Source of the DNA: Escherichia phage OES_C-1
Sequence record: PQ553088
Direction: 5' to 3' (one strand)
DNA: 64,000 nt
In this document: piece by piece, positions 11,817-54,208 of the stretch
How the letters are laid out: each line of letters opens with the position of its first letter
Position numbering within the stretch: the stretch's first letter is position 1
The notes under the pieces: model-generated
Databases searched by the model: none
What the model saw: only the letters and a program-made list of their open reading frames with translations
Told to the model about the DNA's origin: nothing
Translations under genes and position numbers: made by a program

Positions 11817-11833
11817 ATTTTCCTCACTTAATT

Positions 11834-11909
11834 GGTCGAGGCAGTAGGGATCGAACCTACGACCTAGGACTTAGAAGGTCCTTGCTCTTCCTTCTGAGCT
11901 ATGCCCCGT
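11834..11909 (-). tRNA. tRNA-Arg (anticodon UCU)
   Basis: 76-nt cloverleaf read by hand: acceptor CGGGGCA/TGCCTCG, anticodon loop CTTCTAA, T-arm GTAGG-TTCGATC-CCTAC, encoded CCA. Confidence 0.85.
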
Positions 11910-11911
11910 AA

Positions 11912-12577
11912 TTAAAATTTCATTTTTCGACCTTTAAACCATCCTTCTGGAATTGGGTCAGTTTTCTTAATACGTTTAGAAACTTTTTCATCTAATGAAT
12001 GAATCCACATCATACCAAATTGGGAATTCTTTTCTCCTTTCTGATGATTATTTTTAGCGTGAATTTCTTTCATTTTATTAATAGTTTCAGGAGTATGATG
12101 CTTATTTAAAAATCTGCTATTATTTAAAAATTTTTCCTTGTATTCAGGAGTTGACCACAAACGTTTAAATACATTTGAACCAATTTTACGATATTTTTCT
12201 TGAAGTAAAATATCATTTTCAAAACGTGATTTAAACGATTTAGCTCCTTTTAAACTAGCATCTTTCTTCTGGTTTAGCATCCCAGGAATATTTATATGGT
12301 CCCATCCACCTTCACCACCAAGTTTTAAATTATACACATCTGGTCTATTTAAAAACTCTTCTGTGACAATATTTTTCTCAGCTTCAAGCATAGATTCTTT
12401 ATCATCAAAATACTCTAATATTTCTTTAGAAAAATTTTCTATACCATACTTGTCTTGGGCTCTTTTTAATAATTTACCAGAACCCATATATCCATCATCT
12501 AAATTTTCGGTAGAATGCACACCAATATAAATTTTATTATTAATTTTATTTGTTATTTTATAAAGATAAAAATGCAT
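11912..12577 (-). CDS. segB: GIY-YIG homing endonuclease (SegB-like)
   Basis: 221 aa from ATG at 12577; YLYKITNKINNKIYIGVHST...GYMGSG GIY-YIG motifs; sits inside the tRNA cluster as SegB does in T4; track extension to 12619 would overlap a tRNA. Confidence 0.75.
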   Translation of the reverse strand: MHFYLYKITNKINNKIYIGVHSTENLDDGYMGSGKLLKRAQDKYGIENFSKEILEYFDDKESMLEAEKNIVTEEFLNRPDVYNLKLGGEGGWDHINIPGMLNQKKDASLKGAKSFKSRFENDILLQEKYRKIGSNVFKRLWSTPEYKEKFLNNSRFLNKHHTPETINKMKEIHAKNNHQKGEKNSQFGMMWIHSLDEKVSKRIKKTDPIPEGWFKGRKMKF

Positions 12578-12623
12578 ATCAGTCCCTAATAAAGAACTGA
12601 GCGTCTCACGACGAGTCATAAAT

Positions 12624-12697
<74 letters not shown>

Positions 12698-12703
12698 AAA
12701 TTT

Positions 12704-12789
12704 GGTGCGAGAAGTGGGACTCGAACCCACAAGGAAATCATTCCGCAGCATTTTAAGTGCTGTGCCTTTACCAATTTGACCATTCTCGC
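12704..12789 (-). tRNA. tRNA-Leu (anticodon UAA), class II with long variable arm
   Basis: Acceptor GCGAGAA/TTCTCGC, anticodon loop CTTAAAA, variable arm GGAATGATTTCC, T-arm GTGGG-TTCGAGT-CCCAC, encoded CCA. Confidence 0.85.
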
Positions 12790-12790
12790 G

Positions 12791-12863
12791 CTGGGAATAA
12801 AGGACTCGAACCTTTGCATCCTGGAATCAAAATCCAGTGCCTTACCAACTTGGCTAATTCCCA
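12791..12863 (-). tRNA. tRNA-Gln (anticodon UUG)
   Basis: Acceptor TGGGAAT/ATTCCCA, anticodon loop TTTTGAT, T-arm AAAGG-TTCGAGT-CCTTT; CCA not encoded. Confidence 0.8.
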
Positions 12864-50442: not shown

Positions 50443-50510
50443 GTTATCGAGTTGATGCCATTATATACATCATTTTCTGAGTATGTTTTGTGTGCTTTCA
50501 AAATGAAGAA

Positions 50511-50529
50511 AGGGGCCGAAGCCCCTTAT
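50511..50529 (-). repeat. hairpin aggggccgaagccccttat (second copy of the 19-nt repeat at 8707-8725)
   Basis: Exact 19-nt identity; lies just downstream of the hoc stop. Confidence 0.6.
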
Positions 50530-50537
50530 GATTATGA

Positions 50538-51956
50538 TTATGGATAGGTATAGATGATACCAGTTTCTAAAGCAGTTTTATGAATGATGTATCCATTACG
50601 CGATTCTTGAACATCAACTTCTGGATAGTCTTTCATCATCTTCTGAAGAGTGTAACGATGTAGGTAATATTTACTATCTGGGTCGTCAGTTTTCCAATCT
50701 TTACCTTCTTCGGTCATTTTTTGGATTTCATCCATAACCCACCAACCGCACCAGATATAAGCTGAAGTACGATGTGGAAGAGGATGAACATAAGGTAGTT
50801 CACCTTCTGGTTCCGGAGCAACTTTATCAGTCACTTGAACTTGACCTGTGGCTTTAACTGTTTTACTATCATAGTCAGTTGCTGTAACGACAGCAGTAAC
50901 TTCAATAGTTTGACTTCCAATAGATGAGGTATCAACAGTATATACGTTAGTTGACCCTTCTACAGGAGAAGAATCTTTCTTCCATGAGTAAGTAATTTGT
51001 GCTGCTTCAGGTGCGCCAGTAACATTAGCAGTAAATGTAGCCGAAGCATCTTGCTGAACATTAATAGAAGGAGGAGTCAATGTAACCTGTGGATTCATTG
51101 TCTTCTTATTAACTGTCAATGATACTTCATTAGAAGTAACTGTTTTTGCGTCGTAATCCGTTGCTGTTACTTGGGCTATACATTTAATTTTTTTAACTCC
51201 AGCCACAGTTGGAGTATAGTTAAATGTAGAGTTAGTTTCTCCACCAACTTGTGAATCATCTACATACCACTGATACGTAGCAGACGCTCCATCAGGTTGA
51301 GAAGCTAATGCAGCAGTAAATTGAACCGGGGTTCCAATTACTCCAGCAGCAGGACTAGCAGGAGTTACTGCCAAGGTAGTTGTCTGCGTCTTTTTATTAA
51401 CAGTCAGTGACACTTCATTAGAAGTAACTTCCTTTGTATCATAATCTGCCGCGGTTACTTGAGCTACACACTTAATTGTTTTAACTCCGCTTGTAGTAGG
51501 AGTATAATTGAATGTAGCAGAAGTTGCTTCGCTCACAGGAGAACCGTCAACGTACCATTGATACGTAGCAGATGCGCCCGATGGCTGTGAAGCTAAGGCA
51601 GCAGTAAATTCAACAGCTGTTCCGATTACTCCTTCTGGAGGACTATTAGGAGTTACAGCTAAGGTAGTTGTCTGTGTCTTATTTTGAACTGTGATAGTTG
51701 TACTAATTTCAGCTGTTTCAGCATCAGTATCTGGAACTGGGTTTGTTGCAACTACTTTAATAGTTTTTTGACCGGCAGGTCCTTTTAGTACATAACTAAA
51801 AGTTGCAGATGTTTCTTCCTGTGGAACATCATCTACAGTCCAAGCATATGTAATAGGTCCATCTCCAGTTTCACCACTGGGTGTAGCAGTAAACTGCTGA
51901 GTCTGATCTATAACTCCAGTAGGTGTTTTAGGAGTTATATCAACTGTAAAAGCCAT
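50538..51956 (-). CDS. hoc: highly immunogenic outer capsid protein Hoc with an extra Ig-like domain
   Basis: 472 aa; tandem Ig-like units; two near-identical 96-aa repeats; T4 Hoc is recalled as 376 aa. Confidence 0.8.
   Translation of the reverse strand: MAFTVDITPKTPTGVIDQTQQFTATPSGETGDGPITYAWTVDDVPQEETSATFSYVLKGPAGQKTIKVVATNPVPDTDAETAEISTTITVQNKTQTTTLAVTPNSPPEGVIGTAVEFTAALASQPSGASATYQWYVDGSPVSEATSATFNYTPTTSGVKTIKCVAQVTAADYDTKEVTSNEVSLTVNKKTQTTTLAVTPASPAAGVIGTPVQFTAALASQPDGASATYQWYVDDSQVGGETNSTFNYTPTVAGVKKIKCIAQVTATDYDAKTVTSNEVSLTVNKKTMNPQVTLTPPSINVQQDASATFTANVTGAPEAAQITYSWKKDSSPVEGSTNVYTVDTSSIGSQTIEVTAVVTATDYDSKTVKATGQVQVTDKVAPEPEGELPYVHPLPHRTSAYIWCGWWVMDEIQKMTEEGKDWKTDDPDSKYYLHRYTLQKMMKDYPEVDVQESRNGYIIHKTALETGIIYTYP
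51090..51665 (-). repeat. in-frame tandem duplication, two units of 288 bp, inside hoc
   Basis: cttcattagaagtaac recurs at 51125 and 51413 (period 288 = 96 codons) with long flanking identity. Confidence 0.75.
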
Positions 51957-51965
51957 AAGTTATCC

Positions 51966-52646
51966 TTATTTTAATGTTACGAAAGAAGAATTACGTGTTT
52001 CACGAATTAGAACTGATCCGTCACGATTAATGTAGTAAATTAAGCTAAATAAAGTTTGATGTGCCGACGCGTGTTCAAAACTAGTTGGGTGAGATTTCCA
52101 ATCCGGAGTTTCAGCGATCCATTGATAAATCCACCAAGGAACCGTACAGAATCCTGGATTTTTTCCAATCAGCTGAAGATTCGGACTAAAGTTTTCCGGA
52201 AGAGTAAATACAGACGGCTTTTCAGATTCAATAATCTCAGCTACAGCCTGTTCGAATTTTTCTTCAACAAAAGGAGTATCTTCAATCAAAACATCGGTAT
52301 TTTCAGGAATTTTATCCGTTTCTACTACTTCAATTTTAATGTCAGATTTAACCGGAGAATCAATCAGAAGCGCTGCTTCTGGATTGACTTCTTCATCGTC
52401 ATATTTTAATCCCTCTGCGGCATCAGCAGCATTGATTAAGTCTTTAATAGATAACCCATCAGTCTCTGGCATAGGTTCACTAGCGAGCTTCTGGAGGGCT
52501 TCTTCAATATCATTAACGATATTATCAAAAGATTTATTCTTTTTGACCTTTATACCAAACTGTTCAGCATATTCAGCTAATTTAGCTTTAGCTTCTTTAT
52601 TATCATCAAGAGCCTTCAGCTCTGCAATATAATCTTTATCTATCAT
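51966..52646 (-). CDS. inh: inhibitor of prohead protease
   Basis: 226 aa; position after hoc; same length as T4 Inh. Confidence 0.75.
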   Translation of the reverse strand: MIDKDYIAELKALDDNKEAKAKLAEYAEQFGIKVKKNKSFDNIVNDIEEALQKLASEPMPETDGLSIKDLINAADAAEGLKYDDEEVNPEAALLIDSPVKSDIKIEVVETDKIPENTDVLIEDTPFVEEKFEQAVAEIIESEKPSVFTLPENFSPNLQLIGKNPGFCTVPWWIYQWIAETPDWKSHPTSFEHASAHQTLFSLIYYINRDGSVLIRETRNSSFVTLK

Positions 52647-52659
52647 AATATTTCCTCAG

Positions 52660-52667
52660 TATAAATA
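52660..52667 (+). promoter_or_regulatory. late promoter (TATAAATA) upstream of uvsW
   Basis: tataaata about 30 nt upstream of ATG 52697. Confidence 0.5.
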
Positions 52668-52696
52668 TAGATATATTTATTACATGGTATTTAGAC

Positions 52697-54208
52697 ATGA
52701 CTGACATTAAAGTACATTTTTATGATTTTAGTCACGTGAGAATTGATTGTGAAGAAAGTACATTTCATGAACTCCGTGATTTCTTTAGCTTCGAAGCTGA
52801 CGGGTATCGGTTTAATCCTCGCTTCAGATATGGCAACTGGGATGGACGAATCCGTCTTTTAGATTATAATCGCCTTCTTCCATTCGGCTTAGTTGGGCAA
52901 ATTAAAAAGTTCTGCGATAACTTTGGCTATAAAGCTTGGATTGACCCGCAAATTAACGAAAAAGAAGAATTATCAAGAAAAGATTTTGATGAATGGCTTT
53001 CTAAATTAGAAATCTATTCAGGAAATAAAAGAATTGAACCGCATTGGTATCAAAAAGATGCAGTGTTCGAAGGGTTAGTTAATCGTCGTAGAATTCTTAA
53101 TCTTCCAACATCCGCAGGTAAATCTTTAATTCAAGCTTTGCTTGCACGTTATTATTTGGAAAATTATGAAGGTAAAATTCTTATCATTGTTCCAACAACT
53201 GCTCTGACAACTCAGATGGCTGATGACTTTGTTGACTATCGTTTATTCAGTCATGCAATGATAAAGAAAATCGGTGGTGGAGCATCAAAAGATGATAAAT
53301 ATAAAAATGATGCACCGGTAATTGTTGGTACATGGCAAACTGTAGTAAAACAACCAAAAGAATGGTTCTCGCAGTTTGGAATGATGATGAATGATGAATG
53401 CCATCTTGCCACAGGAAAAAGTATTTCATCTATCATATCAGGTTTAAATAACTGCATGTTCAAATTCGGTTTGTCTGGTTCATTACGTGATGGCAAAGCC
53501 AATATCATGCAGTATGTTGGAATGTTTGGTGAAATATTTAAGCCAGTAACGACTTCTAAATTAATGGAAGATGGACAAGTAACTGAGTTAAAAATTAATA
53601 GTATTTTTCTTCGCTATCCCGATGAGTTCACTACTAAATTAAAGGGAAAAACTTACCAAGAAGAAATAAAAATTATTACTGGGCTCAGTAAAAGAAATAA
53701 ATGGATCGCTAAATTAGCTATTAAACTTGCGCAAAAAGATGAAAACGCTTTTGTCATGTTTAAGCATGTATCACACGGTAAAGCTATTTTCGATTTAATT
53801 AAAAATGAATACGATAAAGTTTATTACGTATCAGGGGAAGTTGATACTGAAACACGCAACGTAATGAAAACCTTAGCTGAAAATGGTAAAGGAATAATTA
53901 TAGTAGCTAGTTATGGTGTATTTTCTACTGGTATTTCAGTTAAAAATCTGCATCACGTTGTTTTAGCGCACGGTGTTAAATCAAAAATCATTGTATTACA
54001 AACAATCGGTCGTGTATTACGTAAGCATGGTTCTAAAACAATCGCAACGGTCTGGGACCTCATTGATGACGCGGGCGTAGTTTCTAAATCAAAAACATCT
54101 TCTAAAAAATACTCGCATTTGAACTATCTTTTAAAACACGGCATTGATCGTATTCAGCGCTACGCAGATGAAAAATTTAATTACGTAATGAAAACAGTTA
54201 ATTTATAA
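52697..54208 (+). CDS. uvsW: UvsW RNA-DNA and DNA-DNA helicase
   Basis: 503 aa; SF2 helicase motifs (PTSAGKS Walker A, DECH box). Confidence 0.9.
   Translation: MTDIKVHFYDFSHVRIDCEESTFHELRDFFSFEADGYRFNPRFRYGNWDGRIRLLDYNRLLPFGLVGQIKKFCDNFGYKAWIDPQINEKEELSRKDFDEWLSKLEIYSGNKRIEPHWYQKDAVFEGLVNRRRILNLPTSAGKSLIQALLARYYLENYEGKILIIVPTTALTTQMADDFVDYRLFSHAMIKKIGGGASKDDKYKNDAPVIVGTWQTVVKQPKEWFSQFGMMMNDECHLATGKSISSIISGLNNCMFKFGLSGSLRDGKANIMQYVGMFGEIFKPVTTSKLMEDGQVTELKINSIFLRYPDEFTTKLKGKTYQEEIKIITGLSKRNKWIAKLAIKLAQKDENAFVMFKHVSHGKAIFDLIKNEYDKVYYVSGEVDTETRNVMKTLAENGKGIIIVASYGVFSTGISVKNLHHVVLAHGVKSKIIVLQTIGRVLRKHGSKTIATVWDLIDDAGVVSKSKTSSKKYSHLNYLLKHGIDRIQRYADEKFNYVMKTVNL

Follow-up and report, generated by a model that had tools for sequence, protein, structure and literature searches.

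Hoc of Escherichia phage OES_C-1 belongs to a common two-unit class with old, diverged copies of an Ig-like domain

Among phage proteins that bind animal mucus, Hoc is the textbook case, and in the engineering of T4 nanoparticles it serves as the main display platform. In Escherichia phage OES_C-1 (PQ553088), of which a stretch of 64,000 nucleotides was analysed here (the window), the hoc gene encodes a protein with one Ig-like domain more than the Hoc of T4. The question that this locus raises is whether the additional domain is a fresh duplication, an artefact of assembly or an established feature shared with other phages, and what it could mean for the protein on the capsid. The extra domain proves to be real, old and common, and it falls into a class that had been annotated before, so that as such it is already known. 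We think it highly probable that OES_C-1 carries a common two-unit allele of hoc, in which old, diverged copies of domain 2 have been kept and the number of copies varies by recombination, with consequences that may reach fibre length and adhesion.

The hoc gene, its repeat and its neighbourhood

The list of open reading frames gives an intact minus-strand frame of 472 codons plus stop at 50538–51956 of the window, and judging by its sequence this gene is hoc, encoding a head decoration protein of the T4 type. A phmmer search aligned its product with the solved chain of T4 Hoc (PDB 5vf3_Z, 376 aa) with E = 2.5e-214, and the hoc gene of T4 measures 1131 nt in NC_000866.4, in agreement with the identification and the lengths (472 against 376 aa) given by the original prediction. 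The alignment consists of two pieces, in which residues 1–103 correspond to T4 1–103 and residues 189–472 correspond to T4 93–376 (580 bits). Therefore, exactly one unit of 96 aa is extra in OES_C-1 Hoc; T4 has one domain-2 unit, and the domain numbers of both proteins differ as had been proposed. The gene is 100% identical to that of Escherichia phages OES_C-2 and OES_C-3. Annotation of hoc is inconsistent among records: besides ‘hypothetical protein’ (OES_C-2, OES_C-3), it appears as ‘capsid vertex protein’, ‘endonuclease’, ‘PKD domain protein’, ‘capsid whiskers protein’ and ‘anti-TA protein alt3’. The gene is divided as follows.

50538..51956, minus strand: hoc coding sequence, 472 aa plus stop (stop codon 50538–50540), from the ORF list and phmmer
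51681..51956, minus strand: Ig-like domain 1 (D1), aa 1–92; aligns with T4 Hoc 1–92; model strands in 3–91, pLDDT about 84–93
51393..51680, minus strand: unit u1, first copy of domain 2, aa 93–188, absent from T4; model domain 98–187, pLDDT above 90; S183-L184-T185
51105..51392, minus strand: unit u2, second copy of domain 2, aa 189–284, counterpart of T4 domain 2; model domain 194–283; S279-L280-T281
50817..51104, minus strand: Ig-like domain 3 (D3), aa 285–380; aligns with T4 Hoc 189–284; Pfam Ig_3 / I-set at 289–374; model domain 290–376
50541..50816, minus strand: C-terminal capsid-binding domain (Ct), aa 381–472; near-identical to T4 Hoc 285–376; modelled as alpha/beta with low pLDDT (41–66)

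Tandem Repeats Finder (TRF) located the repeat at 51100–51680 (period 288 nt, 2.0 copies, 77% matches, score 703), and a second repeat search returned copies at 51100–51387 and 51388–51675 with 77% identity. The repeat is head-to-tail and in frame, and comprises a whole 96-codon Ig domain sited between D1 and D3. Over 288 nt the gene reaches a self-identity of 0.767 at best; in 30 codon-shuffled genes the value averaged 0.406 and never exceeded 0.431. Thus, the in-frame tandem repeat of 288 nt that had been predicted is present, whereas the positions assigned to its units (51090–51377 and 51378–51665) are shifted by 10–15 nt relative to the detected repeat. Neither can the units be called near-identical, as they had been: u1 and u2 share 77% of their nucleotides (67 of the 288 positions differ) and 76 of their 96 residues (79%), and the longest in-register identical tract is 18 nt.

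These differences bear directly on the possibility that the repeat was collapsed or expanded during assembly. Short reads can mis-assemble tandem repeats, but such an error would yield identical copies. Moreover, the open reading frame is intact, two genomes in GenBank and two contigs in ENA contain the same sequence, and a gene of 1419 nt occurs in dozens of other genomes, including the single-gene record AY101183 of phage RB30. The probability of an artefact is, in our opinion, negligible.

Regarding the protein, Pfam matches to OES_C-1 Hoc (PKD, Ig_3, Ig_2, I-set) exceed their cut-offs. PKD, Ig_2 and PKD_3 match two stretches each, with PKD/Ig matches in both u1 and u2, and Ig_3 and I-set fall in domain 3. 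An AlphaFold2 model built with 52 homologues has four beta-sandwich domains (about 3–91, 98–187, 194–283 and 290–376) with pLDDT mostly above 90, and the best PDB matches obtained by Foldseek are strings of four Ig domains (Dscam, Sidekick Ig1-4; E about 1e-13). The Pfam matches and the model bear out the view that the repeat adds one whole Ig-like domain. Residues that differ between u1 and u2 are concentrated in loops, with 15 of 42 positions compared to 5 of 54 in strands (Fisher p = 0.002). Both units possess an SLT motif, at residues 183–185 in u1 and 279–281 in u2, and the Trp-rich aromatic cluster IWCGWWVMD of the C-terminal domain of T4 Hoc is kept.

The order of genes around hoc (uvsW / inh / hoc / 24.3 / 24.2 / rnlB / 24) matches that of the T4 RefSeq and of OES_C-2, minus segE. 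Two features next to hoc are relevant to its expression.

51966..52646, minus strand: inh, prohead protease inhibitor, 226 aa, assigned by the position of T4 inh; Pfam Phage_Inh_N/C matches on the homologues in L028 and L029 (a pair of loci presented below)
50510..50527, minus strand: terminator-like GC hairpin AAGGGGCTTCGGCCCCTT with a T-rich tail behind it, 10 nt past the hoc stop, from a pattern scan

The inh gene lies upstream of hoc on the same strand with a gap of 9 nt, and both genes are probably co-transcribed. A terminator is annotated under the hoc match in records NBG2 and fPS-90. No exact copy of the T4 late promoter TATAAATA was found on the hoc strand upstream of inh; the sole exact copy near inh (52660–52667) is on the plus strand and points to uvsW, and a candidate late promoter with a 7/8 match, AATAAATA, is located at about 52674–52681 on the minus strand. 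The late-promoter core occurs 24 times in the 64,000-nt window, compared with 9.7 expected, and none of 100 shuffles reached 24, which is as expected of a T4-type late-gene region. A TTATGA microrepeat of 2.8 copies (50526–50542) overlaps the hoc stop and is probably trivial.

Other observations concern the wider surroundings. In the T4 RefSeq, segE, a gene for a GIY-YIG homing endonuclease, sits between inh and uvsW; it is absent from OES_C-1, in which the inh–uvsW spacer is only 50 nt (52647–52696), and likewise from OES_C-2 and T4_ev240. The uvsW frame (503 aa, plus strand, from 52697) stops at 54208; behind it come a GC hairpin AAGGGCTTCGGCCCTT and then a separate frame of about 76–80 aa, in another reading frame, which runs to 54464. 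The T4 RefSeq has a single uvsW of 1764 nt, so that the apparent split in OES_C-1 may be either real or a difference of annotation. Only three tRNA genes, Arg-tct, Leu-taa and Gln-ttg, were detected in the window by ARAGORN and Rfam (11833–12863, minus strand), with about 800 nt devoid of tRNA between those for Arg and Leu. The corresponding cluster of T4 has eight tRNAs, and the set of OES_C-1 may be reduced relative to it.

Age, selection and distribution of the two units

A recent tandem duplication in OES_C-1 or its immediate ancestors would leave a repeat like this one, a single domain in length, with both copies in the same orientation and the reading frame fully preserved. However, the copies differ at 23% of their bases, with a dS of 0.97 (about 1) and a dN/dS of 0.14 between u1 and u2, values to be read as a blurred measure of age owing to exchange between units, which are mosaics of a few variable patches. 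The dS between units in other two- and three-unit alleles ranges from 0.66 to 1.49, and for orthologous hoc segments of OES_C-1 and T4 or RB30 it is 0.17–0.40. Since the units are more distant from each other than orthologous segments are, the duplication is older than the sampled alleles.

The comparison of single units leads to the same side of the argument, as each copy is nearer to its counterpart in RB30, mobillu, T4 or T4_ev240 (87–94%) than to its neighbour (77%). Specifically, u1 shares 87% of its nucleotides with u1 of RB30, 94% with the single unit of T4_ev240 and 79% with domain 2 of T4, and u2 shares 90% with u2 of RB30 and 90% with domain 2 of T4; the dS relative to T4 domain 2 is 0.33 for u2 and 0.755 for u1. 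Taking RB30 and mobillu together, u1–u1 identities are 84–87% and u2–u2 identities are 89–90%, compared with 74–77% between u1 and u2 within each allele examined. The two-unit architecture is, besides, common to many independent genomes. We consider a recent duplication extremely improbable.

Both units are retained as folded, translated domains under purifying selection. The concentration of differences in loops and the dN/dS of 0.14 indicate that the domain has been kept folded, a result that is silent on whether the number of domains matters. With respect to T4, D1 is the fastest-evolving segment of hoc (dN/dS 0.47), and Ct has 96.8% nucleotide identity and a dN/dS of 0.03. The original prediction had regarded hoc as a site of rapid evolution. 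This holds in the sense that the Ig domains (dN/dS 0.1–0.47) evolve faster than the capsid-binding domain (0.03) and that the unit number recombines, as described below, whereas every pairwise dN/dS is below 1.

The lengths of Tequatrovirus Hoc proteins follow the rule 280 + 96n aa, with n from 0 to 3 (280, 376, 472 and 568 aa), and this ladder substantiates the proposal that domain number varies between related phages. Among the best 120 protein clusters there are 80 of 376 aa, 29 of 472 aa and 7 of 568 aa, plus four near-variants. In a sample of 60 evenly spaced records out of 678 matching phage records, the hoc span is 1131 nt (one-unit) in 31 cases and 1419 nt (two-unit) in about 19, and three records have three units. 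A two-unit hoc is therefore present in roughly a third of the sampled Tequatrovirus-type genes. A scan of IMG/VR for hoc DNA gave 21 loci only, mostly from other genera.

The 568-aa form was verified in UGKSEcP1, T4_ev151 and ESh34, and at the other end of the ladder Escherichia phage F2 (MN864145, 901–1743 of our locus L032) has a Hoc of 280 aa formed by D1, D3 and Ct, with zero domain-2 units. The flanking domains of these four phages are as in OES_C-1, and only the number of units differs. In the three-unit proteins the third unit is of a further diverged type, unlike the two of OES_C-1. A u1-type unit comes first in all two- and three-unit alleles examined. Of 80 one-unit alleles, 53, 12, 8 and 6 fall into clusters in which u1-, u2- and u3-type units are represented; the single unit is u2-type in T4, and u1-type in T4_ev240 and in locus L010.

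The closest precedent is RB30. Its hoc was deposited in GenBank as AY101183 (protein AAM52483, 1419 nt) with five annotated regions and a repeat_region at 367–944; two Ig domains are placed at 312–599 and 600–887, and the annotation reads ‘intragenic repeat led to appearance of additional immunoglobulin-like domain’. It has in common with OES_C-1 the 1419-nt gene, the five-domain layout and the tandem repeat of domain 2 with orthologous units, but it is a different allele, 89.3% identical overall (D1 85%, D3 89%). A search of the papers available returned nothing relevant on RB30 hoc or on the T4_ev phages, and Fokine 2023 makes no mention of the 472-aa class. Given the 23% divergence of the units, the two-unit form of roughly a third of the sampled relatives and the annotation of RB30, what the original prediction had implied, namely a fresh duplication, possibly artefactual or peculiar to OES_C-1, has to be abandoned.

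T4 Hoc (NP_049793; PDB 5vf3, 8t1x and others) agrees with OES_C-1 in gene position, D1, D3, the capsid-binding domain and the late-region context, and differs in having a single u2-type domain 2, without u1, and in the presence of segE beside inh. Hoc-like proteins of Klebsiella phages (PMBT63, 468 aa; Marfa, 471 aa) also have four Ig-like domains and a capsid-binding domain, but are only about 50% identical to OES_C-1 Hoc. For that of PMBT63, an extra Ig domain relative to T4 has been described and mucin retention shown (PMC13435897). In Marfa (MN044033, 1501–2916 of locus L012), an internal Ig repeat starts at residue 186 with an offset of 94 aa and 80% aa identity; this repeat is sited elsewhere and thus reflects a duplication independent of that in OES_C-1. 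The hoc spans of Klebsiella phages vary by about 282 nt, a parallel domain-number polymorphism in another lineage of Tevenvirinae. In the Hoc family as a whole there are 1 to 10 Ig-like domains, the Hoc of Serratia phage Muldoon having 10 (PMC10385173), and a Hoc variant of phage PNJ-9 has been reported with only three domains, one fewer than that of T4 (PMC11853027). The Hocs of Muldoon and PNJ-9 are distant in sequence, while that of OES_C-1 is in the T4-proper allele series.

A further observation concerns Escherichia phage mobillu (MN850622, 501–1919 of locus L006), which is filed under Mosigvirus and has a two-unit hoc of the Tequatrovirus type, 90.4% identical to that of OES_C-1. In RB69, a Mosigvirus, the match to OES_C-1 hoc is limited to the C-terminal 19%. 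The hoc of mobillu suggests either horizontal exchange of hoc between genera or an issue of classification.

Recombination and changes in copy number

Painting of diagnostic residues along the units reveals a few variable patches that have been shuffled among units and phages. A clean typing of units into classes A, B and C was attempted and dropped; clusters do form, but position-by-position painting shows mosaics of patches.

For each one-unit protein, two-unit proteins were screened as possible parents, together with the in-register point at which their units could have been joined. At the protein level, removing 96 aa from P0025 reproduces P0115 (phage ChristianSchoenbein) with 0 mismatches over 376 residues. 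P0032 likewise accounts for P0042, P0045 and P0047, with 2 mismatches apiece that all fall in the flanks. At the DNA level, the pair consists of L029 (MZ501056, ChristianSchoenbein; 1501–2631) and the two-unit allele L028 (a Logan contig of SRR22270443; 1501–2919). The single unit of ChristianSchoenbein is composed of u1 of L028 up to nucleotide 219/230 and of u2 for the rest, with 1 mismatch in 288 nt, compared with 16 mismatches for pure u1, 58 for pure u2 and 16 for the reverse hybrid. The one-unit gene corresponds to the two-unit gene with an in-register deletion of 288 nt whose junction lies at unit nucleotides 219–230, and the flanks of both loci differ at 0/276, 2/567 and 3/1500 positions. 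These two loci are a natural parent and product, as expected of a recent unequal homologous crossover.

When 80 one-unit alleles were tested for the direction of the hybrid, models joining u1 to u2 (forward) and their reverse fitted equally well, with a mean of 16.4 mismatches each (Wilcoxon p = 0.50); a gain of 5 or more mismatches was obtained for 7 alleles in the forward direction and for 2 in the reverse, a clear forward signal being limited to this subset. From the equality of both directions across the sample it follows that the history of most one-unit alleles is unassignable and that only individual close pairs are informative. Unequal crossover is demonstrated as a mechanism for particular pairs, not for the whole population. 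That three-unit alleles arose recently as the reciprocal outcome of crossover between two-unit alleles was considered and rejected, as the best fits left 21–43 mismatches.

The nearest relative of OES_C-1 with another copy number is T4_ev240, whose hoc is 99.6% identical in D1 and 99.7% in D3 and which bears a single u1-type unit; it is a near-isogenic copy-number variant. Its unit is only in part a simple u1/u2 hybrid of the OES_C-1 allele (12 mismatches, compared with 16 for pure u1), and the 3' third bears a patch from another allele. With a shared tract of only 18 nt between u1 and u2, the array of OES_C-1 may rarely recombine and is probably fairly stable.

We propose that domain 2 acts in the population as a cassette of variable copy number, present 0, 1, 2 or 3 times. 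Unequal homologous recombination in register, together with patchwise exchange between units and alleles, removes and reshuffles its units. A different history can be drawn from the same alleles: u1- and u2-type units could be old alternative forms of a one-unit gene, already diverged when one crossover at the conserved domain boundary, either illegitimate or guided by short homology, joined them. One-unit alleles with u1-, u2- and u3-type units do exist, all three domain boundaries in hoc share the short motif TV-x-NK-K/T-T, and in phage F2 a boundary-to-boundary junction is seen, D1 joining D3 at the conserved TV-NK-KT motif. Yet an old array that lost now one unit and now another, time and again, gives the same pattern, and loss is directly seen; the constant order of units fits a single old array equally, and both histories predict the same present-day sequence. 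We regard such a fusion of alleles as quite unlikely.

Possible consequences for the fibre and for adhesion

In T4, the C-terminal domain of Hoc binds the centres of gp23* hexamers, and 155 fibres of about 180 Å decorate the capsid (PMC10385173). The binding domain of OES_C-1 Hoc is near-identical to that of T4, and consequently the 472-aa protein should, judging from sequence, sit at the same place on the capsid. By analogy with the work on T4, the C-terminal domain would seat the protein at the centre of the gp23 hexamer with the string of Ig domains directed outward. The extra unit would add about one Ig domain of fibre, that is about 45 Å according to our own proportional estimate from the 180 Å and four domains of T4.

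Domain 2 of the PNJ-9 Hoc binds fucose of MUC2 via S183, L184 and T185 (PMC11853027). By analogy with this phage, the additional unit of OES_C-1 would provide a second domain-2 surface including the S-L-T motif, and valency may double. It is reasonable to infer from this literature that the extra unit would result in a longer fibre and altered adhesion.

The opposite view deserves attention, in which the extra domain is a spacer to which selection is indifferent, and copy number varies only through recombinational drift, leaving adhesion and fitness unaffected. Hoc can be dispensed with under laboratory conditions (PMC10385173), alleles with 0, 1, 2 and 3 units are all in circulation among phages that are otherwise alike, and the pairwise dN/dS values show no positive selection. 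Nevertheless, purifying selection acts on both units (dN/dS 0.14), which differ from each other mainly in surface loops, and roughly a third of genomes have the two-unit form. On balance, we find a purely neutral spacer doubtful, if quite conceivable. A more ambitious proposal goes further than our reading of a retained two-unit allele and supposes that the domain-2 array is a maintained, recombination-driven combinatorial adhesin cassette, in which u1, u2 and u3 would recognise different glycans or surfaces and balancing or niche-dependent selection would keep alleles of 0 to 3 units in circulation. We judge this proposal unlikely.

Many natural phages of the T4 type carry 0, 2 or 3 copies of domain 2, compared with the single copy of T4, and copies are lost by unequal crossover. 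The number of copies matters for comparing the gut retention of therapeutic phages. Moreover, caution is needed when residue numbering based on T4 is applied to other isolates, as the S183–T185 site of PNJ-9 occurs twice in OES_C-1 Hoc. If the array were indeed an adhesin cassette, unequal crossover would let phage populations quickly retune the length and valency of their fibres, and favoured arrays would be stabilised by the high divergence of adjacent units at synonymous sites.
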